Assembly: GCA_016191015.1 (NCBI GenBank)
Contig: JACPPM010000200.1
Coordinates: 21,954 to 85,953 of the forward strand
DNA from: Acidobacteriota bacterium
GTDB taxonomy: Bacteria; Acidobacteriota; CAIWXX01
DNA length: 64,000 bases
Direction: 5' to 3'
Shown here: positions 30,625 through 55,757 of the stretch, piece after piece
How the letters are laid out: every line of letters begins with the position of its first letter
How positions within the stretch are numbered: position 1 is the stretch's first letter
Notes under the pieces: generated by a model
Told to the model about the DNA's origin: nothing
What the model saw: only the letters and a program-made list of their open reading frames with translations
The model's database searches: none
Program-made: the position numbers and the translations under genes

Positions 30625-30701
30625 GCGCCCGTAGCTCAGTTGGATAGAGCGACTGACTACGAATCAGTAGGTCGGGGGTTCGAGCCCCTCCGGGCGCTCC
30701 A
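30625..30701 (+). tRNA. tRNA-Arg (anticodon ACG)
   Basis: Manual cloverleaf fold. Acceptor stem GCGCCCG/CGGGCGC, D-arm GCTC..GAGC, anticodon stem ACTGA/TCAGT with loop CTACGAA, T-loop TTCGAGC, 3' CCA. Confidence 0.9.
30653..30701 (+). repeat. attL: 49-bp direct repeat, the 3' half of tRNA-Arg
   Basis: ctgactacgaatcagtaggtcgggggttcgagcccctccgggcgctcca is repeated at 54382-54430 with 3 mismatches. Confidence 0.85.
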
Positions 30702-30747
30702 TTCCCCTCAATAACTTAGCGGTCTCAGCGGGACGGCGAGATTTCTC

Positions 30748-30768
30748 GGGTACCACCCGGGTACCACC
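30748..30768 (+). promoter_or_regulatory. Tandem GGGTACCACC arm-type repeat, left end of element
   Basis: gggtaccacc-c-gggtaccacc, 47 bp inside attL. The same tandem sits near attR. A 15-bp palindrome tgacgcactgcgtca follows at 30789-30803. Confidence 0.6.
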
Positions 30769-31001: not shown

Positions 31002-31307
31002 ATGCGACGCGATACGCACGCTGCTACCCCGCACCGCAGGACTGAGCCGCGCGACGCGGACCGCCTCGTCTCGACGGCCGAAGCCGCCGCATACCTGGGT
31101 ATCAGCGCACAACACATGCGCGCCATGCGGTCCGCCGGCACAGGGCCCGAGTACCACCGGTACTGCGCCGTCGGGACCCGTGGCCGGGCGTATTATCGGT
31201 TGAGTGCCATCGAGTCATGGCTCGCGGCCAGGCGCCACCACTCGACGGCCGACGAGGAGGCCCTGGCGGCGCCCGCCCCACCCTCAAATAACTATCCGGA
31301 GGATTGA
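31002..31307 (+). CDS. Excisionase/AlpA-like HTH DNA-binding protein
   Basis: Signature LVSTAEAAAYLGISAQHMRAMRSAG. First gene inside attL, preceded by an AT-rich region. Confidence 0.6.
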   Translation: MRRDTHAATPHRRTEPRDADRLVSTAEAAAYLGISAQHMRAMRSAGTGPEYHRYCAVGTRGRAYYRLSAIESWLAARRHHSTADEEALAAPAPPSNNYPED

Positions 31308-31308
31308 G

Positions 31309-31407
31309 ATGCCGACACAGAGACACAGCGAGTACGTGCTGATCGGGGCACTCCCCGACGACCCCACCGACTACGACCACGAGACCGTGGATTGCTGGGA
31401 CCGATGA
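31309..31407 (+). CDS. Small ORF (32 aa), translationally coupled to the helicase gene
   Basis: GGAGG ribosome-binding site upstream. Its stop overlaps the next gene's start (ATGA). No homology was assessed. Confidence 0.35.
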   Translation: MPTQRHSEYVLIGALPDDPTDYDHETVDCWDR

Positions 31408-32294
31408 CCACGGACCCCCTCGATGGCAGCCTCGCGAGACGTGTCCCGATCTCGCTGCGGGCCCTCGTCGACGCGTCGCTGCCCCCACTCGATTACGTCT
31501 TGCCCGGTATGCTTGCTGGGACCGTTGGCGCACTGATCTCGCCGGGCGGCGTCGGGAAGAGCTGGTGGGCTCTCCAGGCGTCCGTCTATCTCGCCGGCGG
31601 CCCCGACATACTTGGACTGGACGATCCCAGAGCCCGGCAGCTTCGCCCGGGTCCCGTCGTCTATCTCGCAGCCGAAGACCCCGAGCTGCCCTTGCTGTAC
31701 CGTCTCCAGGCCCTCGCGCGGATGATGGACGATGCCACTCTCGACCGCGTGGATCGCAACCTCCACGTCATCCCGCTCCTTGGGGAATCGCTCGATGTGA
31801 TGACGCCACCTTATCGGCAGGCACTCACCCACTATGCGAAGGGCACGCGGCTCATTGTGATCGACACCCTCCGCCGCGCGCACACCCTCGACGAAAATTC
31901 GAGTGGCGACATGGCCCGTCTCCTGGCTGTCCTAGACCAGGTCGCCGTCACAAGCAACTCGGGTGTGCTCTATCTGCACCACACCACGAAGAGCGCGGCC
32001 CTGTCGGGCCAGGGCGACCTGCAGCAGGCCGCACGCGGATCGTCCGTCCTCGTCGACAACATTAGATGGCAGGCATACGTCTCGGGGATGTCCGAGGCAG
32101 AGGCCGACCGGTACGGGATCACCGACGAGGATCGACGGCTCTACGTCCGAGCCGGCGTAGCCAAGATCAACTACGGTGCTCCTCTACCTGAGCGGTGGTA
32201 CCGTCGTGATGAGAGAGGCATCCTGCGGCCAGCCGATCTCCGTCCGATAGCTACTCGGACGAGGAGGACGCGGCAGGAGGCCCTCTCCGTATGA
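31404..32294 (+). CDS. RecA-like AAA_25 ATPase (RepA-helicase-like replication protein)
   Basis: Walker A SPGGVGKSWWAL and Walker B LIVIDTL. Resembles phage/plasmid RepA-like helicases. Confidence 0.7.
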   Translation: MTTDPLDGSLARRVPISLRALVDASLPPLDYVLPGMLAGTVGALISPGGVGKSWWALQASVYLAGGPDILGLDDPRARQLRPGPVVYLAAEDPELPLLYRLQALARMMDDATLDRVDRNLHVIPLLGESLDVMTPPYRQALTHYAKGTRLIVIDTLRRAHTLDENSSGDMARLLAVLDQVAVTSNSGVLYLHHTTKSAALSGQGDLQQAARGSSVLVDNIRWQAYVSGMSEAEADRYGITDEDRRLYVRAGVAKINYGAPLPERWYRRDERGILRPADLRPIATRTRRTRQEALSV

Positions 32295-32298: not shown

Positions 32299-33423
32299 GT
32301 GCGGCACGGAGACGGGAGGCCAGACATGAGCGGACGCCCCACAACGCAAACCGATCACGCCCGGCACCACCCCGCGCACTGCATGGCGCCAGGGTTGTTT
32401 CGATCACTGAAGGGCCGGAGTCGCACGGACCGCCCCGCCCTCGACATCAGATACACCTGGGGCGACGCTGAGTACCACTTCCTTGGCGTGGCACTTGGGG
32501 TCGAGGACATGCGTGTCTTACAGGCGCTGACCGCGATCGCGGGTGTGCGCGGTCTACAGCTCCCGCACGAGTCGACTCGGCCGCGAGACCCGCACTGGGA
32601 GCGTCTGCGCCGCACACTCGAGGATACGCCTGCCGACGGCAGTCCGCGGGACCACCGCTCCGCTACCGCTGCGGCTCTCGTGACGAGTCGCTATCGTCTA
32701 GCGGTCGAGGCCGGCTGGGAACCGCACTCCGCCCGCCGCATGCACCTCCTGCTGGAGGCGCTGGAGCGCCTTGGCGCGATCTCGCTCTACGTCACGCACG
32801 GCGCCAAGATCACGGGTCCGTACCGGCTGCTCGCCTTTTTGCTTGATCGAGACACCGACAGACTGCTGATCGCTCTCAACCCGCACATCGCCGCCACAAT
32901 CCTCGGCACCATACCCAGCGTGGCCTATGTCTCGCTCGTCGAGGCACGCGCGCTCACAACCGACCCCAGCCGCCTGCTGCACCAGTGGCTATCCGCGTGG
33001 ATCGGACCCGGCCAAGCGCGCCTCATCTCTATCGACGCAATCTGCTCGCATATCTGGCCCGACAGGGCCACGGACCGGAAGCTACGTGATCGGCGTCTCA
33101 AGGCCCGGGCCAGTCTCGACGAGATCGCCGCACTACCGTACTGGCAGGTCACCCCCCTCCGTCCTGACACCTGGCGCATTTCGCGCCGACGGGGCCTCCC
33201 CTCCGTCGGGGTGTACCGACATCGTCGTTGGGGTGTACCGGCATCGACGTTGGGGTGTACCGGCATCGACGCCCCCCCAGATGCCCATCCGCATCACAGC
33301 CGCTACCAGCGCGGGTCCCAGCCACCAGCGTCACTACCGGACGAAACCGCTCTAGTAGATACTAGAGAGTATCTAGGGCGCGAGGCCCTGGATGACCTCG
33401 CGCCCTCTGGGCCATGGAGATGA
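32299..33423 (+). CDS. Putative replication initiator-like protein holding internal iterons
   Basis: No recognizable catalytic motif. Placed between helicase-like and primase-like genes, and its 3' end holds three 22-bp direct repeats. Confidence 0.4.
   Translation: MRHGDGRPDMSGRPTTQTDHARHHPAHCMAPGLFRSLKGRSRTDRPALDIRYTWGDAEYHFLGVALGVEDMRVLQALTAIAGVRGLQLPHESTRPRDPHWERLRRTLEDTPADGSPRDHRSATAAALVTSRYRLAVEAGWEPHSARRMHLLLEALERLGAISLYVTHGAKITGPYRLLAFLLDRDTDRLLIALNPHIAATILGTIPSVAYVSLVEARALTTDPSRLLHQWLSAWIGPGQARLISIDAICSHIWPDRATDRKLRDRRLKARASLDEIAALPYWQVTPLRPDTWRISRRRGLPSVGVYRHRRWGVPASTLGCTGIDAPPDAHPHHSRYQRGSQPPASLPDETALVDTREYLGREALDDLAPSGPWR
33208..33273 (+). repeat. Three tandem 22-bp iteron-like repeats (ggggtgtaccgRcatcgWcgYY)
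   Basis: Units at 33208-33229, 33230-33251 and 33252-33273. The 22-bp period is not a multiple of 3, so this is a DNA-level repeat. Followed by a C7 run. Confidence 0.7.
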
Positions 33424-34220
33424 GGCGTCAGCTCGCGTGGTACGACTCCGTGGGCGTGGACCGGTTCGATATCGCCGTCTCTCTGAGCGCCGACAACAGC
33501 GACGGCATGATCTGGCACCGCGACATCACCGCCGATCGAGTCATCGCGCTCAGACCCTTCGCCGCGGCGCGCAACGCCGCTGGCGCGAACATCTACGTCC
33601 GGCCGGCTCGTGGTCACGACTGGCCGGTTCTCCTGCTCGATGACATCACTCGCTCTTGGGCGGATCGGATCCAGCGCGCCCGCGCCTGCTGCCTGGTCGA
33701 GACCAGTGCCGCCAATCACCAGGCGTGGATCCACTGCGCTCGTTCCCTGGATGAGCCGGAGCGGTGCGCGTGCCAGCGCGCGATCGCAACCAAGATCGGT
33801 GCGGATATCGGCTCGGTCAGTGGGGAGCACCTCGGCCGCCTCGCAGGCTACCGGAACAACAAACCCGGGCGCGGAGGGCACTGGGTACGCATCCATGCGA
33901 TCGGCGCCGGCCCAGCGTGGGATCCGTCGCGCGTCCTCGCCGCTCAGAGTCCCGGCGATCTCCCGCAGCCGACTCCACCCCCAGGGGGGGCTGTGGTTCA
34001 CGGCGGCGGCGGACCGGATGAGAGCGCCGACGAGTGGGGCTATGTATGCGGCCGGCTGACGTGGCTACGCGACTCGCACGCCTCGGACTCACGCATCACG
34101 GCCGAGCTCGCGGCGATGTCGGCGCAGCTGGAGCGACGCGCGGTCGCACGCCACAAAGCAAAGCCGGCACAGTACGCGGCCCGCACCGTCGCCAACGCAC
34201 GCCGGAGGATCGGGGTGTGA
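33414..34220 (+). CDS. Putative primase/replication protein (RepB'-like)
   Basis: Motifs NIYVRPARGHDWPVLLLDDI and QAWIH. Start overlaps the upstream stop. Assignment is tentative. Confidence 0.4.
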   Translation: MEMRRQLAWYDSVGVDRFDIAVSLSADNSDGMIWHRDITADRVIALRPFAAARNAAGANIYVRPARGHDWPVLLLDDITRSWADRIQRARACCLVETSAANHQAWIHCARSLDEPERCACQRAIATKIGADIGSVSGEHLGRLAGYRNNKPGRGGHWVRIHAIGAGPAWDPSRVLAAQSPGDLPQPTPPPGGAVVHGGGGPDESADEWGYVCGRLTWLRDSHASDSRITAELAAMSAQLERRAVARHKAKPAQYAARTVANARRRIGV

Positions 34221-34687: not shown

Positions 34688-35221
34688 GTGTCCACAAACA
34701 AGACAGTGCGGCGTCACGAGGTCCGGGCGCGTCTCACGGACGAGGAGTACGGCGCGGTAGCGCATCTCGCGCAGGAGTCCGGGCTCTCGCAGGCGGATGT
34801 CTTGCGGAGGCTCGTCCTCACGCACTCAAAGCGAAAGTGGGAGCGCGCCGCAGCGGGCGAAATAGAGCAGATGACAACCGATGTTGAGGCGCTGAGCAAG
34901 CGCGTCGAAGCGCTCCACAGCAGGCTCGGCGGTGTGGAGCATGGACTCATGGCAGGCATCGAGACCTTGTCAAAGGACATCGTCATCGCGCGGAACGCCG
35001 CCCTCGAAGTCCAGGCGGCGCGCGGAGGAAGCGGCAAGACTGCCCAAGCAATCGAGGCCGGCATCCAGGATCTCTCCGCAGCGGTCCGGGAGCTGATACG
35101 CATTGACTCCCTGACCGCTCTCCGCGTCCAGGCGGTGGTCGATCTACACCCGAGTGAGACGGTCCGCCAGCGATTCGGGCAGTTGGTCGAGCAGGTCCGC
35201 GCCCAGGGAGGCGAAGTCTGA
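34688..35221 (+). CDS. mobC: MobC-family mobilization (relaxosome accessory) protein
   Basis: N-terminal RHH (VRARLTDEEYGAVAHLAQESGLSQADVLRRLV) followed by a helical C-terminus. GTG start. Confidence 0.65.
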   Translation: MSTNKTVRRHEVRARLTDEEYGAVAHLAQESGLSQADVLRRLVLTHSKRKWERAAAGEIEQMTTDVEALSKRVEALHSRLGGVEHGLMAGIETLSKDIVIARNAALEVQAARGGSGKTAQAIEAGIQDLSAAVRELIRIDSLTALRVQAVVDLHPSETVRQRFGQLVEQVRAQGGEV

Positions 35222-36570
35222 TGCCGATCGTTAAGGCCGGATTTTCGGCCGGCTTGCACGGCCGGGCATCGCCGGCATCCTGGGGTCGCCGCGTAGCATA
35301 TCTCGGCCGCGATCAGGATCAGGCCGCACTGCTCCTGGCGCGAGACGGCACGATCTCCAAGACCGGGGCGCTAGCAGAGCTGGGCGGTAAGCAGGCCGAG
35401 TATCACGAGGCGATCGTCGCGTGGACCCCAAATGAATGCCGCGCACTGGCCGAGCGATTCGGATCAGCCGAAGCGGCGAAGGAGGGGATCGCGAGGAGTA
35501 TCGCGCGCAACCTCGCGGGTGAAGACGGCCATTATGTCGTCGCGATCCACGCCAAACGCCTCAGCACCGGCGAGCAGGCGTGGCATCTCCACGTCGCCAT
35601 CCAGGGACGGGAGCCCGCGCAGTTTCTGGGCGCGAGAGGCCGGGCCCAGCGTGCCGTCGATGCCGCATGGCGCGAATGCGCCCCGAAGCTGCCGATCAAC
35701 GACTGGACCAAGCACGCCCAGTTTGTCTGCATTCGTGCGGAGCTTTGCGCTCTGCAGACCCAGCAGAATAAGCTCTCCGGCGAGCGACGCAACGCACTCC
35801 GGCGAGCGCGCGGGCCGGCAAAGCTCGAGGTCGACAAGGAGTATGCCAGCAAGATGCAGGCGCTTGTCGAGCGTCGCCATGCCCTCGAGCTTGCGGCCGC
35901 CCAAGCCCGGTACGATGCTCGCGGGATCGGCGGGGGCGCGGAGCACCTTGTGGAGATCGAGCGCGCCGACATGCGTCGAGCGCAGGCGCTCTCGGTCATC
36001 GAGCGCAGATCGGAGGCGGTCCGGGCGCGGGGTGGTGCACTGACCCGTACGGATCGCCTGTGGCGCTCCGCACGCGCACAGGACGCCGGCGTCGGCCGAG
36101 GTATCGCGGCCGCCCTACGGGGCGTCCAGCGCGCCCAGCGGGGCATATCTGCCGGGATATCAGGCATGGCCGCGTCGGCGGCGATGTCGGCTCTGCCTGC
36201 GCCCATGCGGGCGATGGTCACGCCATTCCGCCTGGCCGGCCGTCTGATGGCCACCACGACACAGCCGGCACAGCGGGACGTCGAGAGTCCGCTTGCGCCG
36301 CTCCGCGCGCTGCGCCCCGTCATGGCAGGACTACGGTGTGTCGTGCACCTGGGGTCCGCTGTGCTCGGGCCTGCTCTCGCGCCCGCCAAGATTCCAACGG
36401 AGGTCGTCAGCTCCCCACGCAGCGCGATCACCAATGCTGCCGAGCACGCCGCCGGAGCGGCCGTGGGAGTCGTCGGCGGACCCATAGCTGGTGGCGCTGC
36501 CAAGGCGCTGACCGCTGTTCTGCGGGTCCTGAGTTCCGCCCCCCAAGTCATCCAAGAAGTCGAGATATAA
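35221..36570 (+). CDS. Relaxase/mobilization nuclease
   Basis: Follows mobC with a TGATG overlap. His-rich motif HLHVAIQGRE plus an Ala-rich C-terminal tail. Family assignment is tentative. Confidence 0.55.
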   Translation: MPIVKAGFSAGLHGRASPASWGRRVAYLGRDQDQAALLLARDGTISKTGALAELGGKQAEYHEAIVAWTPNECRALAERFGSAEAAKEGIARSIARNLAGEDGHYVVAIHAKRLSTGEQAWHLHVAIQGREPAQFLGARGRAQRAVDAAWRECAPKLPINDWTKHAQFVCIRAELCALQTQQNKLSGERRNALRRARGPAKLEVDKEYASKMQALVERRHALELAAAQARYDARGIGGGAEHLVEIERADMRRAQALSVIERRSEAVRARGGALTRTDRLWRSARAQDAGVGRGIAAALRGVQRAQRGISAGISGMAASAAMSALPAPMRAMVTPFRLAGRLMATTTQPAQRDVESPLAPLRALRPVMAGLRCVVHLGSAVLGPALAPAKIPTEVVSSPRSAITNAAEHAAGAAVGVVGGPIAGGAAKALTAVLRVLSSAPQVIQEVEI

Positions 36571-36592: not shown

Positions 36593-37117
36593 ATGAGCAC
36601 CCATGACCCGAATCCACCCCAAGGGGGGGCTGTGGTTCATCCGCGCGACAACATGTCGCCCCCATCGCCTCAGGCACTGGCTGCAGAAGAGAGGCGTTTG
36701 CGTCGATGGATCGATCAATGGTACCGAGATCGCGCGCCCGGCCGGTGCGCCCGATACGGATCCCAGATGCTGGATCCGGTGTGGCTGGAGATCGAGGCCA
36801 CGGACTGGGGCTGGTGCTCAGTGCCTCTCATCTCCGTGGCGGAGTCATGGCGTAGGCACGGCCTCACGCGGCGTCTCCTCCAGTACCTGGAGTCGTTGCG
36901 AGGGATGCGGACGATCATGGTGAGGAATGTTCACTCTGACCATCTCCGAGAGGCTCTGGCGCGCTACGGTTACACAGATCTCGGCGGCGGCACGCACTGG
37001 CGGCGAGATTTGAGGTCGCCGGCGTCTTGGCTGCGTGGTCTCGCCATGCTCCGTTCTTGGTCGCGCCAGGTGTCATCGCCAGGACTCAGGGCAGGCGATG
37101 TTGCGCGGCGTGACTGA
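36593..37117 (+). CDS. Hypothetical protein (possible GNAT-like fold)
   Basis: AAGGAG ribosome-binding site. Weak motif-A-like RRHGLTRRLLQYL. Confidence 0.35.
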   Translation: MSTHDPNPPQGGAVVHPRDNMSPPSPQALAAEERRLRRWIDQWYRDRAPGRCARYGSQMLDPVWLEIEATDWGWCSVPLISVAESWRRHGLTRRLLQYLESLRGMRTIMVRNVHSDHLREALARYGYTDLGGGTHWRRDLRSPASWLRGLAMLRSWSRQVSSPGLRAGDVARRD

Positions 37118-37815: not shown

Positions 37816-38019
37816 ATGCTAATCCGCATCGAAGTCAATACAGCCGCCGAGGCAGACGAGGTCCTTGACGCGTTGCGTCATCGCTTCTGGGGCCGCATCC
37901 GGGAAGTCGCCCACACACCAGTGTGCCGAGATGTGTATCTGATGCCTCAAAGTGTCGAGGTGCCAGGCCGGGAGGGACGCACATGCAGAGCGGACAGGCA
38001 GGACGAATCGCAATCATGA
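37816..38019 (+). CDS. Small hypothetical protein
   Basis: 67 aa. Its stop overlaps the metzincin start (ATGA). Confidence 0.3.
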   Translation: MLIRIEVNTAAEADEVLDALRHRFWGRIREVAHTPVCRDVYLMPQSVEVPGREGRTCRADRQDESQS

Positions 38020-40646
38020 CTACGCGCGGAAGGATGGCGAGTAGGAAGGGATTACCCTGGAGGGTACTCATGGGATGCGTATTGGTGTTGTTGGCGCTAT
38101 TGGGTGCTAGTTGCGTCGAGGGTGTGGGGGCTGAACTCTTCCCCTCGAGTGCGGCGTCCGTGATTGGCGAGCCGCTTCGGGTATCCCGCGTGGAGGTCGT
38201 CACCGTCAATCCCGATGTACTGACGGAACAAGGGCCGACGCGCATCGGCCTGCGGATTTTCGGCGTGGAGCGCGTCGCCGAGCGCACCAAGATGGAACGG
38301 CGATCACGCACCAATTGGAGTTGGTTCGGGCACCTCGAGGGGGATAGCAGCAGTTCGGTGATCCTGGTCAACTGGGACGGGGATCTGTACGGCACGATCT
38401 CTGGATCGGCCGGCCGCTTCGCGGTCCTGCCGGGGTGGGAGGCCGGAACTTGCCGGTTGCTCGAGCCGGTGGTATCCCCCGGCCCGCAGTGCGCTGCCAT
38501 CGAGTTCGGGGACATCCTCCCCGCGGAATACACGGCGATCGGCCCGGAGCCGATCACGCCGGCCGCTCCGGATGTGGTGACGGTCAACGTCCTAGTGATG
38601 TATACACAAGGCGCCGAAGACCGCGCCACCCAACTCGGTGTCACGATCCCAGCTGTGATTCAGGTGCAGGTCGACTCTACGAACCAGGCTTATGCTCAGA
38701 GCCAGGTTAGCCACCGGATTGCTCACACATTGGCGAAGGTGAGCTACGCCGACAGCGGATCGCTCTACACAGATCTGACGCGCATGGTGGTTTATGGCGA
38801 TGGCTACTTCGACGACCTGCTCGTACAGAAGCAGGCGGTGGCAGCGGACATCCCTGTGTTGGTCGTGGGATTGTCGAGTGACGCCGGCGGCCTCGGCTCG
38901 CTCATGACGGTGGTGAGCGAGGCCTTCGCGCAGGACGCCGCAGCAGTCCTCAACACTGACAACGTGGCATTTGCCTGGGCATTTTCATTCGCGCATGAGA
39001 TCGGCCACGTGATGGGAGTGCGGCACAACTGGGAGGACGATCCACAGACCACCCCATACATCTACGCGCACGGCTACGGCAAACAAGAAGCCGATTTCCG
39101 GGATATCATGAGTTATCCCAACGCATGTCCATCGGGATGCGTTGCGAGGAACTACTTCAGTAACCCGAATCTCAATTTCAACGGCTATCCGATGGGGATC
39201 GCGGAGGGAGCGGGCCCTCAGCCAGCGGATGCCGTGCGAGCACTGAACAATACAGCCCCCACGGTCGCAACGTTCCGGAACTATCTTGCCACCTGCACCT
39301 ACGCTCTCAACGCTTACTCGCGCAGCGTGAGCTCTGCGGCGGGCAGCGGGTCATATGGTGTAACGACCACCGATGGGTGCCGGTGGTCAGTCAACACCAG
39401 CGACTCCTGGATCACGATCACATCGGCGCCATCTGCCTATGGCACCAGCGTAGTAACCTATACGTACGGGGAGCACGGCAGCCAGTCGAGCCGCGCCGGC
39501 ACGATTACCGTGACCCCGGTTGATGGTAGCAGCGGCACCATCAGCTATATCCTCACTCAGTCCCCGGCCGGTGCATGCACCGTGTCAACCAATCCGACAG
39601 GCAGCGTGTTCTTCGCGACAGCTGGTGGCATCGGCAGCTTCGCGATCAACGTGAACAGCCAAGGCTGCGCCTGGACCGTAAGCAACGGCCTGCCGTGGGT
39701 CACGATCACGAGCGCCACCAGCGGGACGGGGAACGCCACGGTGACGTACACCGTGGCGCCGAACGCGAACTCAATGCGGAGCGGATACATCCAGGTGAAC
39801 GCCGGCGGCTTTCAGGCGCAGTACGCTGTAGCGCAGCAGGGCAGGAGCTGCCCTGTTGTGCTCACACCGGGATCGGCCAGCTATGCGTCCGGTGGTGGAA
39901 GCGGATCATTCGGCATCACCGAAACGAGCGGGTGTGGCTGGACCGCGACGAGTTACGATTTGTGGCTCACGATCACTGGCGGAGCGTCCGGCACCGTGAG
40001 CTACTCCGTGGCCTCCACGAGCTCCACCACCGGACGCACCGGCTCGATCGTGGTTGATACGGGGGCGGGGAATCAGACTTTCATCGCCATGCAAAATGGG
40101 GTGGGCCAGACATGCGCTTACGCCGTGACTCCGTTCTCAGAGACATGGGATGACGACGGGGGATCGACATCGGTGTCGATCACCACAACCACCGGCTGCG
40201 CATGGAACTCCGTGAGTAACGATGCCTGGATCTCGTTCTCGGCTGGCTCCGGGAGCGGCAGCGGCTCGGTCACGATGAGCGTGGATGCCAACCTGGCGCC
40301 GGCTGCGCGCACGGGGTCGGTGGCGATCGCGGGCACCACGTATGCGATCGCGCAGGAAGCCTACGACAGCGGCGGGGGCGGCGGTGGCACGACCCCTGTG
40401 ATCAACACGATCAGCAGCAAGAAGGCGAAGCCGAAGACGAGCGCAAAGCTCGTCGGCACGAACTTCTCTGCAACCAAGACGCAGAACACGGTTTACTTCG
40501 GCAAATACACAGCCACCATCAAGAGCGCCGGCACGAGCCAGCTCAAGGTCACGATCCCATCGCAGTGCAAGTCCGGGAAGACGTATCAGGTCTCCGTCAA
40601 TACCAATGACGTCCGCAGCAACACGATCCCCTTTCAGGTCAAGTAG
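38016..40646 (+). CDS. Secreted metzincin zinc protease with four BACON-like repeats and a C-terminal IPT/TIG domain
   Basis: Signal peptide. Metzincin motif HEIGHVMGVRH (HExxHxxGxxH). Repeated GC[AGR]W..W[IL]T[IF] modules. C-terminal TIG-like beta domain. Confidence 0.75.
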   Translation: MTTRGRMASRKGLPWRVLMGCVLVLLALLGASCVEGVGAELFPSSAASVIGEPLRVSRVEVVTVNPDVLTEQGPTRIGLRIFGVERVAERTKMERRSRTNWSWFGHLEGDSSSSVILVNWDGDLYGTISGSAGRFAVLPGWEAGTCRLLEPVVSPGPQCAAIEFGDILPAEYTAIGPEPITPAAPDVVTVNVLVMYTQGAEDRATQLGVTIPAVIQVQVDSTNQAYAQSQVSHRIAHTLAKVSYADSGSLYTDLTRMVVYGDGYFDDLLVQKQAVAADIPVLVVGLSSDAGGLGSLMTVVSEAFAQDAAAVLNTDNVAFAWAFSFAHEIGHVMGVRHNWEDDPQTTPYIYAHGYGKQEADFRDIMSYPNACPSGCVARNYFSNPNLNFNGYPMGIAEGAGPQPADAVRALNNTAPTVATFRNYLATCTYALNAYSRSVSSAAGSGSYGVTTTDGCRWSVNTSDSWITITSAPSAYGTSVVTYTYGEHGSQSSRAGTITVTPVDGSSGTISYILTQSPAGACTVSTNPTGSVFFATAGGIGSFAINVNSQGCAWTVSNGLPWVTITSATSGTGNATVTYTVAPNANSMRSGYIQVNAGGFQAQYAVAQQGRSCPVVLTPGSASYASGGGSGSFGITETSGCGWTATSYDLWLTITGGASGTVSYSVASTSSTTGRTGSIVVDTGAGNQTFIAMQNGVGQTCAYAVTPFSETWDDDGGSTSVSITTTTGCAWNSVSNDAWISFSAGSGSGSGSVTMSVDANLAPAARTGSVAIAGTTYAIAQEAYDSGGGGGGTTPVINTISSKKAKPKTSAKLVGTNFSATKTQNTVYFGKYTATIKSAGTSQLKVTIPSQCKSGKTYQVSVNTNDVRSNTIPFQVK

Positions 40647-40655
40647 GAGCAAGTG

Positions 40656-43508
40656 ATGAAACGATTGGTTTTCGCATTCTGTGTTTTCGGGCTAGGGATT
40701 TCGGCGCACAGGGCAGGCGCGCAAAGCGGTACGATCGCGATCACGGGTGTGGTGCCGGATGCGAATGGCCATACCGCGACCGTGAACTACAGTTGGAGCC
40801 AGACCGGGCCGGGGTCCAACAAACTCATGACGGGCGACCTCTACGTGCGCATCCTACAGGGTGTGTCACTAGCGCCTGACATCTACAATGATGGGTTCGG
40901 CACCATGTGTACCCAAGCCGCGTCCATGACGTGCGCTGGCACAACCGCGTACTTGGTGGGCTACGGCCGCTTCGGGGTGTGTGTGAACAGCGCCAGCAGC
41001 ACAGGTTCCTTCACCATGGACGGCCTCCTCCCGGGCGTTGGCTACACAGTACAGTTGATCGGGTACCTCGAATGGACAGCAGATTGTGCGAGCCCTGTGC
41101 CCGTGGCTACGCTCTGCATCACGAGTGGTGTCAGCGCCTTGACGATGGGCGCTGGTCAGCCTCCTGTCGTCACAACGCTCGCTGCTTCCAGCGTCACTGG
41201 AACCACCGCAACGCTGAACGGAACGGTCAACCCGAACAACCTCAGCACAAGCCACTACTTCGAATGGGGCACAACTGTTGCGTATGGTAATACCACGTCT
41301 GTCGGACTCCTGTCCCCAGGCCCTCTCAACGGGGCCTGTACCACTCTAGCCACCGCCGGAGGATGGATAGCGAACGCGGTATCAGCGGGGCTGACCGGCT
41401 TGACGGGCGGGCAGACGTACCATTTCCGGGTCGTGGCCACCAACGCACAGGGCACGACCTACGGCGGCGACCAGCAGTTTGCGGCCGCCCAAGTTCCTTC
41501 TCTCACAACCAACCCTGCAACGGGCGTTGGCAGCACCACAGCCACCCTTAACGGTGTCGTCACGACCAACGGCTTAACCGCGAGCTGGTGGTACGAGTAC
41601 GGCACCGGCAGCGGTGTCTATCCCAACAGCACACCAGGCGGGACCGTGCCGGGCGGCACGCCCAGCGCGGCAGTCAGCGTGACTCTCAGTGGGCTACTGC
41701 CCAACAGCACATACTATTTCCGTCTCGCTGGTGCGAATGCGAACGGGACGGGATACGGGATCGAGCGCAGCTACACGACTGGCAGCGCCGCTCCTCCTAC
41801 GGCTATCACGGGTGCAGCATCGGGGGTGAGTACCGTGTCGGCGATACTGACAGGGACCGTCAATCCCGCAGGATCCGCAACCATGTATTGGTTCGAGTGG
41901 GGGACATCGGTCGGCTACGGCAACACGACCCCATCGCAATCCGCTGGCAATGGCACGAGCAACGCGTACGGCAGCTATCCGCTGAGCGGACTCACGAGCG
42001 GCCAAACCTATCACTATCGGGTCGTCGCGCAGAACGCATCAGGTACCGGGTACGGCTCGGATGTCGCCTTCACGACAGGCGCGACTAATCCCCCGGCCGT
42101 GACGACCGGCTCCGCATCGAGTGTGGGCACGACGTCCGCAACCCTTGGAGCCACCATCAATCCGAATAGCTCCGCCACGAGCTGGTACGTCGAGTATGGT
42201 CCGACCACCAGCTACGGGCAGACCGCCTACGGCGGCACAGTCCCGCCAGGCTCCTCGAACGTCTCAGTCAACGTTACCATAACAGGACTGACCCCAGGCA
42301 CTCTCTACCACTGGAGGCCCGTCGGCACGAACGGCATTGGCGGACGCAGCTTCGCGCCGATGGCGTATGGCACGACGTACGGCGCCGACTCGACGTTCAG
42401 CACGACGAGCGTGAGCTATCCCGGGCCTACGGTGACGACGGAAGCAGCGTCGAACGTGGGTTACACAGGCGTGGTTTGCAACGCGACCGTGAATTTCCAA
42501 GGCGACAGTGGCACCTACTGGTTCGAGCTGAGCACATCACCGGGCGGTCCATACACGATCACCTCATCCACCGGCTCCGGTGCGGGAGCGACGGACGTGT
42601 ACGTAAGCCGCGCTGTCTCCACGCTCTCCCAGGGGACGACTTACTACGCTCGCGCCGGTGCACAGAATTCGGGAGGAACTACGTACGGTGCGGATGTCTC
42701 CTTCGTCACAGACACTGCCGGCGTGGGCGTACCCATTGCGAACACGCTCGACGCCAGCAACATCACGACTACGGGTGCTGTGCTCAACGGCACGTACCAG
42801 CCGAACGGGGCGTCGTCGAGCCAGGTGTGGTTCGAATGGGGCACCAGCGCATCGAGTCTCTCAAACGCCACGAGCATCCAAAACGGAGTTGGTGGATCCA
42901 CCGAAACCAGCTACAGCCGGAGCCTCACCACTCTCACCGCGGGAGGCACCTACTACTTCAGGCTGGCGTGCAGCACGCCTACGGGAGGCACTGCCTACGG
43001 CGCCACGCTCACTTTCACCACCAGTACCACGCCGGTCACGTATCTCGAATTCAGCAACTTCAAGTGCAAGTGGAAGGATGTAGCCAACTCCAATCTGCTT
43101 GGTGGTAGCGGAAAGCGTGGTCTCGCTCGCAAGAGCCGGGCCTCGCTCACGTTCACCGGCACCGGCATCGATCTCTACTCGATGCTCGACAAGACACTCG
43201 GCAAGATGAAAATCACGATCGACGGTGCCGCGCTTCGGCATCCCGTCACAATTAGACGGCTCACCGCCGACCGTGGGCTCGTCACGGACATCATCAATCC
43301 CACGAAGCTCGGTCGGAAATCCGGGAAGGGATCTCCGCTCTCCACCACGGTGGATCTTTACACACCGGGAGCGACACAGTTCCAAGAGATTCTCTACTCG
43401 ATCTCCGGGCTATCCAGCGGACAGCACACACTGCGAGTCGACGCGGTCGCGCCCAAGGGGACGAAGCGCTACCACATTTTCGTGGACGCGGTGCGAGTGC
43501 GTGAGTGA
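40656..43508 (+). CDS. Secreted protein with about nine FN3-like repeats and a C-terminal beta-sandwich domain
   Basis: Signal peptide (MKRLVFAFCVFGLGISAHRAGAQ). Repeated ~90-aa modules (T.TL.GTVNPN...YWFEWGT...YG.TT...GQTYH[FY]RVVA.N..G). AGGAGC ribosome-binding site. Confidence 0.75.
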   Translation: MKRLVFAFCVFGLGISAHRAGAQSGTIAITGVVPDANGHTATVNYSWSQTGPGSNKLMTGDLYVRILQGVSLAPDIYNDGFGTMCTQAASMTCAGTTAYLVGYGRFGVCVNSASSTGSFTMDGLLPGVGYTVQLIGYLEWTADCASPVPVATLCITSGVSALTMGAGQPPVVTTLAASSVTGTTATLNGTVNPNNLSTSHYFEWGTTVAYGNTTSVGLLSPGPLNGACTTLATAGGWIANAVSAGLTGLTGGQTYHFRVVATNAQGTTYGGDQQFAAAQVPSLTTNPATGVGSTTATLNGVVTTNGLTASWWYEYGTGSGVYPNSTPGGTVPGGTPSAAVSVTLSGLLPNSTYYFRLAGANANGTGYGIERSYTTGSAAPPTAITGAASGVSTVSAILTGTVNPAGSATMYWFEWGTSVGYGNTTPSQSAGNGTSNAYGSYPLSGLTSGQTYHYRVVAQNASGTGYGSDVAFTTGATNPPAVTTGSASSVGTTSATLGATINPNSSATSWYVEYGPTTSYGQTAYGGTVPPGSSNVSVNVTITGLTPGTLYHWRPVGTNGIGGRSFAPMAYGTTYGADSTFSTTSVSYPGPTVTTEAASNVGYTGVVCNATVNFQGDSGTYWFELSTSPGGPYTITSSTGSGAGATDVYVSRAVSTLSQGTTYYARAGAQNSGGTTYGADVSFVTDTAGVGVPIANTLDASNITTTGAVLNGTYQPNGASSSQVWFEWGTSASSLSNATSIQNGVGGSTETSYSRSLTTLTAGGTYYFRLACSTPTGGTAYGATLTFTTSTTPVTYLEFSNFKCKWKDVANSNLLGGSGKRGLARKSRASLTFTGTGIDLYSMLDKTLGKMKITIDGAALRHPVTIRRLTADRGLVTDIINPTKLGRKSGKGSPLSTTVDLYTPGATQFQEILYSISGLSSGQHTLRVDAVAPKGTKRYHIFVDAVRVRE

Positions 43509-47796: not shown

Positions 47797-48093
47797 TCGC
47801 CGCCATGCCCCGGTGCGAAGACGGAGTGCCGGCAGTCACGACGAGTCCTTCGCCGTCGCTCGCCTGGGCCCGCTCTCACGCCCCGCGTCTCGGGCACGCT
47901 TCGCTCTCCGGCTCCGTTGCAGACGGGTCCCCTCCCGCCTTCGGCGGGAACCCTCCCCATCTTCACTCCGCCTCCGGCCTGAGAAGCGGGGACGCGGGCC
48001 TTTAGGGCGAGGCGACGGCGAAGGACTCATCGTGAGACAGGCGGCGGCAGACAATACACAGTAATGCGTGTATTGCCGCCAAAGCCGCACGAG

Positions 48094-48120
48094 GCGCCGG
48101 CTCAGGATCTATCGTGAGAC
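48094..48120 (+). repeat. Element-internal repeat family B, partial copy (…caggatctatcgtgagac)
   Basis: Matches the 3' part of the copies at 48967-49034 and 50277-50335. Confidence 0.55.
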
Positions 48121-48135
48121 AACCGTAAGAACTCC

Positions 48136-48948: not shown

Positions 48949-48966
48949 CCGTTGGAACTGTAGGTC

Positions 48967-49034
48967 CCCCTATCCCCCGCCCGGGGTAACGCGGAACGGA
49001 GGCTCGGGCGCCGGCGCAGGATCTATGGTGAGAC
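48967..49034 (+). repeat. Element-internal repeat family B, full copy 1
   Basis: cccctatcccccgcccggggtaacgcggaacggaggctcgggcgccggcgcaggatctatggtgagac. Confidence 0.6.
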
Positions 49035-49063
49035 GGGGGAACGGAACAGCCGGCGAATGAAGT

Positions 49064-49315
49064 TTATAGTTGGCGCTCCTTTAGGTACTGCGCAAGTGCC
49101 TCGATCACAATATCGACCATTTCGCGTCGGGTGCTCGCTGCGGCCACCTTCAGGCGATAGTGGAGCTCTTCCGGCAAATTGAACGTAGCCTTTTTCATCG
49201 CCGCTTTTCCGAATGGCGACTGCGCCTCTATACGCTGTATAGCTGTAGCCTGTATGCCTGTATGTCCAGCCTGCCTTTGTCCGGTGACTCCTGCCAATCC
49301 TACGCGCTTAGACAT
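49064..49315 (-). CDS. RHH/ParG-like partition DNA-binding protein
   Basis: C-terminal RHH (KKATFNLPEELHYRLKVAAASTRREMVDIVIEALAQYL). Lies immediately downstream of parA on the same strand. The start could instead be the internal ATG at 49198. Confidence 0.5.
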   Translation of the reverse strand: MSKRVGLAGVTGQRQAGHTGIQATAIQRIEAQSPFGKAAMKKATFNLPEELHYRLKVAAASTRREMVDIVIEALAQYLKERQL

Positions 49316-49953
49316 TTTCTCAACTCCTTTACGAGTAGTCGCAATTCCTTGGTCGCCGCTGAGTGTGGCGCAAGACCGGAAACGGTCCGCCCCGCGACAG
49401 ATGCCTCTGCTAGGGCCACCCGTTGTGCTATTTCGGCACGGCAGACAGGCAGTCCGATGCTTCTGGCAGCTTCGCGAGCCTCATCGCCGATTGCCGTGCC
49501 GACGATCCGCCGGCTGATCACGATGTAAGCACGCAACCCCGCATTGCTGCTCCGGGCGCGTGCGATCATCTCCGCCATCCCTTCGCCGCTCCACAGGTCG
49601 AACGCAGACGGCTGGATCGGAACAAGAACGAGATCCGCGACAGCCAGGGCCGACCGCGTAATGCTCTCGGCGCCCGCTGGTCCCCCAGGGGGGCAGTCAA
49701 TCAGGATCATGTCGTACTTGTGGCGGAGTTTGGGCACCTCAGCATGGAGGATTGGCGCCGGCATAGCGACGACATGGAAAGGGATTGAACCCTCCGATCG
49801 AACGCCACGCCAGCGAACAACGGATCCCTGCGGATCGGCGTCAACGAGAAGTGCCTCAAGCCCTTCTTCCCCCAGGATCCCAGCCAATCCGAGCGCGATC
49901 GTGGTCTTGCCACATCCGCCCTTCTGGTTGGCAATCACAATAACGTGACCCAT
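49300..49953 (-). CDS. parA: ParA/ParF-family partition ATPase
   Basis: Deviant Walker A NQKGGCGKTT. ParA motifs VDADPQGS and ILIDCPP. 217 aa, small plasmid-type. Confidence 0.85.
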   Translation of the reverse strand: MGHVIVIANQKGGCGKTTIALGLAGILGEEGLEALLVDADPQGSVVRWRGVRSEGSIPFHVVAMPAPILHAEVPKLRHKYDMILIDCPPGGPAGAESITRSALAVADLVLVPIQPSAFDLWSGEGMAEMIARARSSNAGLRAYIVISRRIVGTAIGDEAREAARSIGLPVCRAEIAQRVALAEASVAGRTVSGLAPHSAATKELRLLVKELRKCLSA

Positions 49954-49990: not shown

Positions 49991-50276
49991 TGTCAAGTCG
50001 CGCCGTGCGTCGCCGGCGCGAGAGAGCGACAGCGGAGTTCGGACCGCCGCTCGCCCAGAGTCCCTGGGCTCCCTCCTCAACCCCGCTGGGCGGGGACCCG
50101 ATGCCCCCTAGCCCCGTCGGGGAACCCGGACCCAGCGAGGGCGATGGACGACGAGGTGTCAGGACCTTCGCGCAGATCCACCAGGACCGTGGCTTCGAGG
50201 AGCCGCGGAATTCCGGACCTGCGCGCGGCCGGGCGGCCGTGCTACTCCAGGGGCAAGCCCCTGGACCCATGTCCCA

Positions 50277-50335
50277 CCTATCCCCCGAAGGGGGTAACGC
50301 GGACGGAGGCTCCGGCTCAGGATCTATCGTGAGAC
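50277..50335 (+). repeat. Element-internal repeat family B, full copy 2
   Basis: cctatcccccgaagggggtaacgcggacggaggctccggctcaggatctatcgtgagac. Confidence 0.6.
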
Positions 50336-50600
50336 ACGATCGATCGATCGACATAGCCCCGGCCGCGGGATCGGAAAGGAGTTGACTTTTGACCCCACAA
50401 GTGCCAACCTTCGCCTATGGGTACCCGTAGGGCAGACAGGACCGCGTTAGATCTGCGCGAAGCACTCGGCGCGTCGCAAGAGACATCGGATTTCTCCACC
50501 GCCTCGGGCCGGAAACGAATCAAGGCGAGGTCGTTGTGGAGTTCGATGGGCGGTTTTACCGCATTACGAAATTCGATTCAGCGTGAATTAGGAGGATCTC

Positions 50601-50978: not shown

Positions 50979-51325
50979 AGAGAGAAGCCGGAAGGACGCT
51001 CTCCGGGAAAAGCAACCTGAAGAAGAACGCCAGAGGAACTACGATCGCTAGACCGTTGACGGCGAAGCAGCGGCGGGAGGTTGCGGCGCTCGCTCAGCGA
51101 CCCGACGGCGAGATCGACTACTCCGACATTCCACCGCTCGAAGACAAGTTCTGGAGGGACGCCGTCCGGAATCCTTTTTATCGTCCGGTCAAGCGACAGC
51201 TCACCGTGCGGTTGGACGTGGATGTGCTCGTGTGGCTGCGCAGCCAGGGCAGGGGATACCAGACGAGAATCAACGCCCTGCTGCGTGAGGAGATGCTCAA
51301 GAGGATGGGCAAGAAAACAGCGTAG
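50957..51325 (+). CDS. BrnA/DUF4415-family antitoxin-like protein
   Basis: Family motif DYSDIPPLEDKFWRDAV...LDVDVL.WLRSQGRGYQTRINALLR. Start codon uncertain (possibly TTG). Confidence 0.5.
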   Translation: MARGRDIEREAGRTLSGKSNLKKNARGTTIARPLTAKQRREVAALAQRPDGEIDYSDIPPLEDKFWRDAVRNPFYRPVKRQLTVRLDVDVLVWLRSQGRGYQTRINALLREEMLKRMGKKTA

Positions 51326-51404
51326 CAAATCCCCCCAGACCCCCCTCCTAATACTAATATGCGCTGTCTCCGCAGCGCATCTATCTGATGCGGCTCAGAG
51401 TGAT

Positions 51405-51442
51405 GTTACCTGGGAGGTAACATTTGTTACCTCCCAGGTAAC
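51405..51442. other. Perfect 17-bp-stem hairpin (gttacctgggaggtaac-attt-gttacctcccaggtaac)
   Basis: Inverted repeat read directly. Lies between the brnA-like gene and brnT. Confidence 0.6.
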
Positions 51443-51480
51443 ATCCCTTCTCCTCGTGCCCGTCCTGCCATCCGGGCCAC

Positions 51481-51545
51481 GGTGAACCACTGCCCCCCCC
51501 CTGGGGGTGGAGTCGGCGGCAGAGAGCTTCCGGGATTCCTGCCGT
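51481..51545. repeat. Element-internal repeat family C, copy 1, with a C9 homopolymer
   Basis: gtgaaccactgccccccccctgggggtggag...gagagcttccgggattcctg. Related to 52225-52290, and the core recurs at 33970 and 36620. Confidence 0.6.
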
Positions 51546-51619
51546 GGGACGGTGGCGCTAAGAAGGAGCCCTCGCGCACAGCCCTGCAATTGTAGCTACA
51601 GAAGGAGTTATAATGGTTC

Positions 51620-51903
51620 GTGAGGTTCGCGTGGGATGAAACTAAGAATACGGAGAACATTCGGAACCACGGCTTCGACTTTGCCGATGTGTGGGAGCTC
51701 TTCGAAAATGCACTCCTCGTGGACCTGGATACTCGCGAGATTATGGCGAGGACCGGTGGATAGGGATCGGACTGCTCAAGAGTGTGGCGGTCGTGGCCGT
51801 CGTCGTGTTTGCCGAGAGAGGACCGGAAACCGTGCGAGTCATCTCGCTCACGAAGGCAACGAAGCATGAAAAAGAAAGATACGAAAACGCCGTCAAGGAC
51901 TGA
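51620..51903 (+). pseudogene. brnT: brnT (DUF497 RNase toxin) disrupted by a -1 frameshift
   Basis: The N-terminal part (VRFAWDETKNTENIRNHGFDF...) stops at 51748. The C-terminal part (DYGEDRWIGIGLLKSVAVVAVVVFAERGPETVRVISLTKAT) continues in the -1 frame. Confidence 0.6.
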
Positions 51904-52141
51904 CTGGAAGCGAGTCAAGGCCATGTCCGATCCTGAGATTGATTGCTCCGATGTCCCTGAGCTCGGCGAGGATTTCTTTGCGCGAGCGGTTCTCTGGCCC
52001 GGGCCCAAGAAGCAAATCACTCTACGGCTTGACCCTGACGTCTTGGATTTCTTCAAGCACCAGGGCCGTGGCTATCAACGGAACATCAACACCGTGCTGC
52101 GGCGATACGTCGAGCTCCAAAGGCAGCGACACGCCAGCTAA
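51866..52141 (+). CDS. brnA: BrnA antitoxin
   Basis: MKKKDTKTPSRTDWKRVKAMSDPEID...ITLRLDPDVLDFFKHQGRGYQRNINTVLRRYV. Overlaps the 3' end of brnT. Confidence 0.7.
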   Translation: MKKKDTKTPSRTDWKRVKAMSDPEIDCSDVPELGEDFFARAVLWPGPKKQITLRLDPDVLDFFKHQGRGYQRNINTVLRRYVELQRQRHAS

Positions 52142-52224: not shown

Positions 52225-52290
52225 GAACCACAGCCCCCCCCTGAGGGTGGAGGGGGCTGCGGAGAGCTTCCGGGATTCCTGGAGTGGGGC
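52225..52290. repeat. Element-internal repeat family C, copy 2, with a C8 homopolymer
   Basis: gtgaaccacagccccccccctgagggtggagggggctgcggagagcttccgggattcctgg. Confidence 0.6.
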
Positions 52291-52691: not shown

Positions 52692-53050
52692 TACAAGCGG
52701 CCCTCAGCCTTCATGCGAGCAAGGAATGGAGATTCGCCTTCTCGCGCGCGAAGATCCTCCACGCGTCGGACCTGGGCACCGATTTCTACATCCATCTCAG
52801 GCTTGTGATCGTAGTAGTACGAGAGCGCGGCATGAATCTGCGCCAGGCTGATCTGCCGATAGTGCTGAATGAAGATCTCCTCGGGGCTCCATCCGTGGGC
52901 GAGGTGATCGAGCGCGATCTCCACAACTTTGCAGGAGGTTCCCTCGATCGTGGCTCGTCCCTCCGCGTCGAGCCGGATATGTGGAACTGACGTGACAGCT
53001 TTGGACAACTTGCTTTCCTCCTCCCTCGAATATACTACGTGCTCTCTCAT
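52691..53050 (-). CDS. DUF433-family putative antitoxin
   Basis: DUF433-like region IRLDAEGRATIEGTSCKVVEIALDHLAHGWSPEEIFIQHYRQISLAQIHAALSYY. Confidence 0.55.
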   Translation of the reverse strand: MREHVVYSREEESKLSKAVTSVPHIRLDAEGRATIEGTSCKVVEIALDHLAHGWSPEEIFIQHYRQISLAQIHAALSYYYDHKPEMDVEIGAQVRRVEDLRAREGESPFLARMKAEGRL

Positions 53051-54204: not shown

Positions 54205-54245
54205 CCTACTCCTCCTGTGTCAGTGCGCTGGTCAGTAGGTTGCTC

Positions 54246-54266
54246 GGGTACCACCAGGGTACCACG
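54246..54266 (+). promoter_or_regulatory. Tandem GGGTACCACC arm-type repeat, right end of element
   Basis: gggtaccacc-a-gggtaccacg, in the same orientation as the left-end copy at 30748-30768. Confidence 0.6.
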
Positions 54267-54381
54267 CACTCATAGTAACCCGCCGACACCAGAATACGCT
54301 TCACACGACTAAGTGTAACATAACTATGAATGTCGTCAACACCCAAATACGCCCGGCAACGTATAAAACGTTTACAGCCTA

Positions 54382-54430
54382 CTGACTACGAATCAGTAGG
54401 TCGGGAGTTCGAGCCTCTCCGGGCGCGCCA
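54382..54430 (+). repeat. attR: partial tRNA-Arg 3' half
   Basis: ctgactacgaatcagtaggtcgggagttcgagcctctccgggcgcgcca, with 3 mismatches to the intact tRNA. Confidence 0.85.
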
Positions 54431-54564
54431 TGTTTTCAATATTTTGCGAGAGATCGACCGGTTCGATGCTTCGGCTGGCGACCGCCGGGCAACCAGTGGG
54501 GTGGCAACGGCCACGGATGGCGCGCTTCACCAGCTCTCGCGACGCGATCTCCTCGCACACAATG

Positions 54565-54836
54565 GGTAGGTCCCGCCCCGGCAGCGGGAGACTGCGGCCC
54601 TCGCCCAGAGACCCGACAGCGACATCGACTATTCCGACATTCCCCCGCTCGAAGGCAAATTCTGGAGGACCGCCGCCCGAAATCATTTTTACCGCCCGAT
54701 CAAATGACAGCTCACCGTACGGTCGGACGCGGATGTGCACGTGTGGCCGCGCAGCCAGGATGGGGGTAACAGACCGGTATCAACGCCCTGCCGCCTGAGG
54801 AGATGCTCAAGAGCATGGGCAAGAAGACAGCATAGC
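54565..54836 (+). pseudogene. Decayed brnA-like (DUF4415) antitoxin copy
   Basis: About 85% nucleotide identity to 51040-51325. Contains an in-frame TGA and an indel. Lies outside attR. Confidence 0.6.
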
Positions 54837-54890
54837 GAGGACTCGAAATCCCCCCACAGCCCCCGTTGGGGTCGAGTCCGTCGCGCGCGT

Positions 54891-55526: not shown

Positions 55527-55566
55527 GCTCTCACTTTACCACCAATCCAGCTCGCTGATCGGCGCG

Positions 55567-55757
55567 ATCTTCACTGTCGTGCGTTTCTCTGCCGCCTTGG
55601 GCGGTCCTCTGGCCTGGCCCAAAGAAGCAGATCACCTTGCGACTTGACCCCGACGTCTTGAAGTTCTTCGAGCGCCGGGGCCGTGGCTATCAACGGAACA
55701 TCAATACAGTGCTCAGGCGGTACGTCGAGCTCCAAGAGCACCGATGCGCCGGCTGAG
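55567..55757 (+). pseudogene. 5'-truncated brnA remnant
   Basis: About 88% identical to the 3' part of brnA at 51960-52141. Encodes ...PKKQITLRLDPDVLKFFERRGRGYQRNINTVLRRYVELQE. Confidence 0.6.

Follow-up and report, generated by a model that had tools for sequence, protein, structure and literature searches.

A probable IncQ-family replication origin inside the repC reading frame of a tRNA-integrated element from an Acidobacteria-labelled genome

IncQ replicons are the classic host-independent replicons, with a very broad host range, and form the base of many vectors. Here we describe a replicon in a stretch of 64,000 nucleotides (nt) of contig JACPPM010000200.1 (positions 21,954 to 85,953 of the forward strand; assembly GCA_016191015.1) from an Acidobacteriota bacterium; this whole stretch is called the window below, and all coordinates are counted from its first letter. 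Three tandem repeats of 22 base pairs (bp) lie near the 3' end of an open reading frame (ORF) that encodes a RepC initiator, and we consider it very probable that they serve as iterons in an origin of vegetative replication (oriV) of the IncQ family, which extends over about 33204-33410. The observations that carry this reading are the repeats themselves, the identities of the three proteins encoded around them, the RepE-like fold predicted for RepC, an IncQ-like order of segments behind the array and the conserved co-location of repC with arrays of about 22 bp across lineages; the likeness of the origin to IncQ origins is architectural only. The repeat is an ordinary, well-understood type of feature, and the original prediction, which had called it iteron-like from the sequence alone, is most likely correct: the element is of a familiar type, and what is unusual is where it lies, namely in an integrated island of an uncultured, non-proteobacterial bacterium.

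The three head-to-tail units and the C7 run behind them can be read directly in the sequence, as first described:

33208-33229, + strand: iteron unit 1, ggggtgtaccgacatcgtcgtt
33230-33251, + strand: iteron unit 2, ggggtgtaccggcatcgacgtt
33252-33273, + strand: iteron unit 3, ggggtgtaccggcatcgacgcc
33208-33273, + strand: the three iterons together, each a 20-bp core GGGGTGTACCGRCATCGWCG plus a 2-bp spacer, with a period of 22 bp
33272-33278, + strand: C7 run directly after the last iteron, opening a G+C-rich spacer

The 2-bp spacers are TT, TT and CC, and the C7 run shares its first two bases with the end of unit 3. Two of the iterons are identical and the third departs at two of the 20 core positions. 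Tandem Repeats Finder (TRF) places the array at 33204-33271 with a period of 22, 3.1 copies, 93% matches and a score of 115, which makes it the top-scoring tandem repeat of the window (the runner-up scores 61). When the whole window was searched with the 20-nt core at up to three mismatches, three matches were obtained, all of them in the array (0.01 expected from shuffles), and a window search with a 14-nt core gave chance-level matches only, so that extra single iterons, for example in promoters, do not rise above chance. The units are read in three different frames (GVYRHRR, WGVPAST and LGCTGID) and the 22-bp period is not a multiple of three; the encoded peptide is therefore not repetitive, as had also been claimed.

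The array is embedded in a set of three replication genes:

31392-32294, + strand: RepA-type helicase (AAA_25; PF13481, E 2.9e-30)
32299-33423, + strand: repC reading frame (PF06504 over amino acids 17-296, 179 bits where the cut-off is 22.8 bits, E 1e-52)
33414-34220, + strand: RepB'-type primase (PF16793, E 1.2e-14)

Together, repA, repC and repB encode all the proteins of an IncQ strand-displacement replicon. The product of 32299-33423 had been proposed as the binder of plasmid-type iterons, an interpretation that is supported by its identity as an IncQ-family RepC initiator, for which binding to the array is predicted. RepC is 38-40% identical to the RepC of pTC-F14, pCHE-A and RSF1010-type plasmids, and RepA is 34-49% identical (43-49% in most cases) to the RepA that precedes repC in 37 of 40 relatives. 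RepB' is 33% identical to RSF1010 RepB' over 148 amino acids, keeps the equivalents of the catalytic residues D77, D78 and D134 and matches PDB entries 3H20 and 3H25 with E about 1e-17 (2e-17 for 3H20). An alternative repB start, the ATG at 33420, overlaps the repC stop TGA at 33421-33423 (ATGA). A PDB sequence search returned no solved structure matching RepC, and neither RepC nor RepA had a match in the NCBIfam, PHROGs and PDB sequence searches. As modelled, RepC has a tandem winged-helix fold, as do RepE and RctB, two initiators that bind iterons: in Foldseek its predicted structure matches RepE54 bound to an iteron (1REP and derivatives), complexes of Rep with iterons and the DNA-unwinding element (8AAN, 8AC8) and domains 2-3 of RctB, with E about 1e-5, a probability of 1.0 and a template-modelling (TM) score to the target of about 0.5.

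The folded initiator accounts for the repC frame only to about 33190-33213, and the remaining 70-78 or so codons form an open, non-conserved tail that holds the whole origin. RepC homologues are 277-300 amino acids long and end about 0-25 residues from the invariant R296; in a search of 1.84 billion representative proteins, none of the best 150 of 710 matches aligned past about residue 319 of the 365-amino-acid form of RepC. AlphaFold (50 sequences) models this form with a predicted local distance difference test (pLDDT) above 90 to about residue 296 and below 50 for residues 297-365, exactly the portion that the iterons and the remaining origin sequence encode; this portion is predicted to be disordered. 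The G+C content at third codon positions (GC3) is 0.615 in the tail, versus 0.76-0.81 in repA, the repC core, repB and the flanking genes. Given the missing homologue, the low pLDDT and the low GC3, the tail of 78 codons therefore resembles origin DNA that does not code. No stop closes the repC frame at its usual place, and the frame goes on for 78 codons across the origin, but a frame of this size stays open in 15% of shuffles and is therefore not significant alone; it looks as if the frame over the origin stays open by chance or by selection.

In order to place the array in the wider RepC family we collected RepC loci from public metagenome contigs, annotated plasmids and one genome per species (80 loci) and collapsed identical RepCs, which left 41 lineages. 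An array was counted if it had a period of 20-23 bp, at least 2.5 copies and a start in the interval from -100 to +150 nt around the point where RepC homology ends. Such arrays are present in 32 of the 41 lineages, with about three copies and a period of 21 or 22 bp wherever listed, and thus the repeat architecture that the original prediction proposed to look for in related elements recurs at the same position. Their density is 3.16 per kilobase (kb) near the RepC end and 0.010 per kb over the other 295 kb that these loci comprise, an enrichment of about 300-fold. Instead of relatives that keep the protein and not the nucleotide repeat, the reverse was found, a tail peptide without conservation and recurring arrays, which favours the iteron interpretation. 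The characterised plasmid pTC-F14 and pCHE-A are among the 32. In pTC-F14 the array consists of 4.9 x 22 bp and begins 56 nt before the annotated repC stop; in pCHE-A, of 3.1 x 22 bp beginning at the stop; and in the widespread int-alpA-repA-repC island module (the L016 group), of 2.9 x 22 bp from 33 nt before the stop. The RSF1010-type plasmid that we examined has 3.5 x (20 + 2) bp in an oriV displaced from repC and is therefore not among the 32.

The iterons of the window sit within an open 3' extension of repC and not in an intergenic region, and such an extension is common in the family: in roughly 26 of the 32 lineages repC stops only within the array or past its start, with the window, at 219 nt, as the extreme. 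Across the family (loci L012-L090) the stop is usually 30-70 nt inside the array, and the C-termini of RepC in databases are therefore partly translated origin DNA. The closest relative (L093), whose RepC is 42% identical, lies on a 1.1-kb contig and has 2.9 x 22 bp wholly inside the 3' end of repC, then a C5 run and an A+T-rich palindrome about 85 nt downstream. With 42% as the best RepC identity, no close relatives of the element were found; a viral collection gave one partial, uninformative match, and a RepB homologue adjoins repC in none of 40 relatives. Iteron sequences vary from lineage to lineage, as is expected from co-evolution of initiator and iteron.

These data bear directly on the idea that the repeats arose as a duplication by chance or slippage, or that they encode a repeat in a C-terminal domain of RepC, and have no function at the DNA level. 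The location inside an ORF, and the ease with which a frame of this size stays open in shuffled sequence, would allow it, but the 22-bp period yields no peptide repeat, the tail is without a homologue, without the GC3 of coding sequence and disordered by prediction, and arrays of the same period with different sequences occupy the same site in 32 of 41 lineages. This explanation is strongly disfavoured already, and we give it next to no credence.

The DNA that follows the iterons is arranged as in an origin of the IncQ type, in three segments:

33279-33349: G+C-rich spacer (the 60 nt after the last iteron, 33272-33331, C7 run included, are 72% G+C)
33350-33375: A+T-rich segment, candidate DNA-unwinding element, with two overlapping palindromes
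33375-33406: G+C-rich hairpin or palindrome with a stem of 11-12 bp, directly before repB

The palindromes of the A+T-rich segment have 8-bp arms and read CTCTAGTA-GA-TACTAGAG and TAGATACT-AGAG-AGTATCTA. The 25-nt interval at 33351, about +80 from the array, is 68% A+T, which ranks in the top 0.7% of the window, and many relatives have an A+T-rich inverted repeat 40-85 nt past their iterons. Folded as DNA, 33340-33412 gives z scores of -4.4 (+ strand) and -5.7 (- strand), with none of 200 shuffles equally stable. The order of a C run and G+C spacer, A+T palindromes and a G+C hairpin matches that of an RSF1010-type oriV, and the sequence '...ACG' followed by C5-7 immediately after the last iteron is found in the RSF1010-type oriV, in pCHE-A and in the closest relative as well. 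A G+C stretch, an A+T-rich region and then G+C palindromes are listed for IncQ origins, and this order has been described for IncQ-3 plasmids (PMC7557826); the repeat format of a 20-bp core with a 2-bp spacer and the parts of the origin have likewise been described for IncQ oriV (PMC4948828). No DnaA box was found near the origin, which would fit independence from DnaA. RNAalifold did not find a consensus structure over the A+T inverted repeat and the G+C hairpin, the inverted repeats falling in shifting registers, and an Rfam scan returned tRNA only.

Several observations weigh against the assignment of this origin to the IncQ family. The conserved 15-bp IncQ box (CTCCACTAGGCGCAG and variants) has no match at up to three mismatches, and the nearest thing to it is a gapped resemblance, CTAGG(G)CGCG; some accepted IncQ plasmids are missing the box too (PMC4948828). 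A pair of ssiA/ssiB sites on opposite strands is not recognised by sequence, and there is only a candidate hairpin motif, the opposite-strand copies of which are kilobases apart. The iteron of the window is not significantly similar to 18 other consensus units in either orientation (circular comparison, p about 0.06-0.07), and the similarity of its origin and iterons to those of the closest relative is marginal to non-significant (p 0.04-0.5), the '...ACG' 3' end and the 'GTACC' submotif shared between iterons having been noticed post hoc only. Profiles built with nhmmer from the post-iteron region of proteobacterial relatives miss 33272-33425, even when this region is searched alone. Textbook origins do not usually lie wholly inside an ORF, even if some overlap with repC is frequent in the RepC family. 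To these must be added the parts of the reading that we infer, namely RepC-iteron binding, melting, the priming sites and activity after excision. In sum, the window origin departs from the features of the IncQ family in three ways: it has no 15-bp box, no identifiable ssi pair and no small autonomous plasmid state.

Sequence homology of the post-iteron region was considered and rejected: a MAFFT alignment looked convincing (an A+T inverted repeat, then 'CTAGGCGCG'), but nhmmer profiles made from the relatives only failed to find the window region. Since the profiles miss it, shared architecture and not sequence homology is claimed.

The candidate ssi motif is a C-run/G-run hairpin of about 35 nt, GCCGACTCCACCCCCAGGGGGGGCTGTGGTTCAC, with conserved 5' and 3' tails:

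33969-34000, + strand: candidate ssi motif
36608-36639, + strand: candidate ssi motif
51494-51530, - strand: candidate ssi motif
52234-52270, - strand: candidate ssi motif

The motif is confined to the element, with two copies per strand and a weak further copy at 49664-49693, and the two + strand copies are 94% identical over 32 nt. Its likeness to RSF1010 ssiA is one of design only; it may be a primase recognition site, a terminator or the binding site of another protein.

Taken together, the proteins and the arrangement of the origin suggest how an IncQ-type oriV at this site could work. RepC, encoded immediately upstream in the same frame, would bind one 20-bp core per iteron, and the 22-bp period, about two helical turns, would set the bound RepC molecules on one face of the DNA. 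The loaded array may then distort the DNA and open the A+T-rich palindromic segment about 80 bp downstream, where the hexameric RepA helicase would enter and unwind. RepB' would prime at exposed hairpin sites, and the host polymerase would copy each strand continuously by strand displacement, without host DnaA, DnaB or DnaG. The replicon is part of an element integrated at a tRNA-Arg gene and would therefore act mainly after excision, maintaining or amplifying the circular form; a related class of integrative element is reported to replicate from an iteron origin (bioRxiv 10.64898/2026.01.12.698999; reviewed in PMC5704250).

The position of the array inside the repC-repB transcription unit, with the repC stop overlapping the repB start, raises the question of whether it is mainly a regulatory operator through which RepC or another protein of the element controls expression from repC into repB, with no initiation of replication. 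Initiators of the RepE type that bind iterons do double as autorepressors (2Z9O is among the fold matches), and the two roles can coexist; yet the same array position is the proven origin in the pTC-F14 and RSF1010 types, and an A+T-rich segment and hairpins come next here, as in origins. A mainly regulatory array seems very improbable to us. In another reading the origin may be kept inside the repC frame on purpose, with transcription and translation of repC crossing iterons, unwinding element and hairpin to reach the repB start at ATGA. We think this unlikely, if worth considering. If such read-through is functional, RepC on the iterons would throttle the supply of primase and the traffic of ribosomes and RNA polymerase would modulate firing, a one-site feedback between initiator load and primase expression; as repC runs into or past the array in about 26 of 32 lineages, such coupling could be a general, unremarked property of IncQ-type replicons of which the window is an extreme case.

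Comparison with known systems shows which features are shared and which are particular to this replicon. With IncQ-1 (the RSF1010/R1162 type, read from pKPC05, NZ_MK330868.1, and from pCHE-A) it has in common the RepA/RepB'/RepC trio, three to 3.5 direct repeats of a 20-bp core plus a 2-bp spacer, and the C run after '...ACG', G+C stretch, A+T inverted repeat and G+C palindromes. In contrast to IncQ-1, its iteron sequence is unrelated, the 15-bp box is absent and no ssiA/ssiB pair is recognised; the gene order is repA-repC-oriV-repB, whereas IncQ-1 has mobA/repB-repA-repC with oriV elsewhere; and the replicon is chromosomally integrated with its origin wholly within the repC frame, whereas IncQ-1 replicons reside on a small plasmid. 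IncQ-2 (the pTC-F14/pTF-FC2 type) shares iterons that abut or overlap the 3' end of repC and the order repA-repC-iterons, but the RepC of the window is only 39% identical, its primase is a separate gene right after the origin rather than a MobA-RepB fusion upstream, and its repC frame continues 219 nt past the array start, compared with 56 nt in pTC-F14.

Origins of the RepE/Pi/TrfA type (mini-F, R6K, RK2) resemble the one described here in having direct repeats of about 19-22 bp, a tandem winged-helix initiator and an A+T-rich unwinding element. Mini-F, R6K and RK2 depend on host DnaA, DnaB and DnaG and on theta replication, whereas IncQ-type replicons bring their own helicase and primase. 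GIsul2, IncP islands and PIME share with the window element a tyrosine integrase, an AlpA-like helix-turn-helix (HTH) protein, RepA, RepC, iterons after repC and a TrbL/VirB6 homologue (PMC5704250; 10.64898/2026.01.12.698999). GIsul2, the IncP islands and PIME are mostly at guaA with int directly upstream of alpA, whereas the window element is in tRNA-Arg with int at the far end on the other strand, has its own primase, coupling protein and putative relaxase, and has a host labelled Acidobacteria. All descriptions of elements of the int-alpA-repA-repC kind are from Pseudomonadota, and a RepB primase is not among their listed genes.

The replicon lies inside a mobilizable island of about 23.7 kb that is integrated at tRNA-Arg within the 124.8-kb contig and is bounded by attL and attR; its ends have the following features:

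30625-30701, + strand: tRNA-Arg, anticodon ACG (ARAGORN; Rfam tRNA, 67.6 bits)
30652-30702, + strand: attL, the 3' half of tRNA-Arg (51-nt direct repeat, 94% identical to 54381-54431)
31002-31307, + strand: AlpA/Xis-like HTH_17 protein (PF12728, E 3.8e-9), the first gene on the side of the replication operon
53047-54204, - strand: tyrosine integrase (PF00589 and Arm-DNA-bind_3)
54381-54431, + strand: attR, a copy of the 3' half of tRNA-Arg (direct repeat)

Further genes of the island encode ribbon-helix-helix (RHH) and NikA-like proteins, a protein with Toprim C-terminal repeats, a coupling protein, TrbL/VirB6 and ParA. Among the island ORFs scanned, TrbL/VirB6 and the coupling protein were found, but there was no VirB4-like ATPase and trbJ was not identified; elements of the GIsul2/PIME type have homologues of both trbJ and trbL and lack a complete type IV secretion system. 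On the host side, the database entry for the RepC of the element is a hypothetical protein from an Acidobacteria-labelled metagenome-assembled genome (MAG). For a malic enzyme encoded in the flank, the nearest named homologues belong to MAGs with the labels Acidobacteriota, KSB1, Planctomycetota and the like, and no proteobacterial label occurs among its named top matches.

The integrated state, with the element's own integrase and att sites, invites the view that the iterons are such by descent and that the island captured a plasmid whose replicon survives as an inactive relic and has ceased to fire. A repC frame that lacks a stop at its usual place and continues for 78 codons across the origin, and the failure to find ssi sites and a 15-bp box, would suit a relic, but repA, repC and repB are all intact, the core of RepC is confidently predicted and the iterons have diverged so little that two are identical and the third is off at two of 20 core positions. 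Moreover, repA-repC-iterons are commonly kept in related integrated elements, and an integrative element of a related type has been reported to replicate from an iteron origin (10.64898/2026.01.12.698999). A relic is in our judgement improbable.

Other parts of the island contain features that we note in their own right. A 449-amino-acid ORF at 35221-36570 lies downstream of the NikA-like and RHH genes, where a relaxase is expected, and has an HxH-type motif (WHLHVAI); this putative relaxase has no match in Pfam, NCBIfam, PHROGs or PDB sequence searches. The cargo at 37923-43508 comprises two secreted-looking proteins of 907 and 951 amino acids with BACON, reprolysin-like metallopeptidase, TIG and fibronectin-III domains. 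Around the ParA gene (49300-49953, - strand) there are four copies of a 31-nt repeat, GAGGCGCCGGCTCAGGATCTATCGTGAGACA, at 48009-48039, 48091-48121, 49005-49035 and 50306-50336, and two copies of a 30-nt repeat at 48966-48995 and 50274-50303, which could be centromere-like or operator-like sites. A tandem pair of the decamer GGGTACCACC occurs at 30739-30767 beside attL and again at 54237-54265 between the integrase gene and attR, and these pairs are candidate arm-type integrase or Xis binding sites. At 51404-51444 a 21-nt palindromic unit, TGTTACCTCCCAGGTAACATT, is present twice in tandem between small ORFs and is operator-like. About 1 kb at the integrase end (51070-52139) is 80-84% identical to DNA just outside attR (54581-55754), a similarity that suggests that another, related element was formerly integrated in tandem at this tRNA and has left a remnant. 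Outside the element, between two chromosomal genes, AGTTCAA is repeated four times (6974-7003) and is followed 27 nt later by four inverted copies, TTGAACT (7030-7058), the two arrays together forming a long composite inverted repeat.

The presence of a complete RepA/RepC/RepB module with an origin in an island of an Acidobacteria-labelled MAG widens the range of hosts and lifestyles of this replicon family, and the element would extend integrative elements of the int-alpA-repA-repC type beyond Pseudomonadota. Few genetic tools exist for this phylum, and the module is a candidate replicon on which more could be built. For the RepC family as a whole, iterons that normally overlap the 3' end of repC provide a simple annotation rule for locating such origins, and this overlap hints at a coupling of repC expression with occupancy of the origin.

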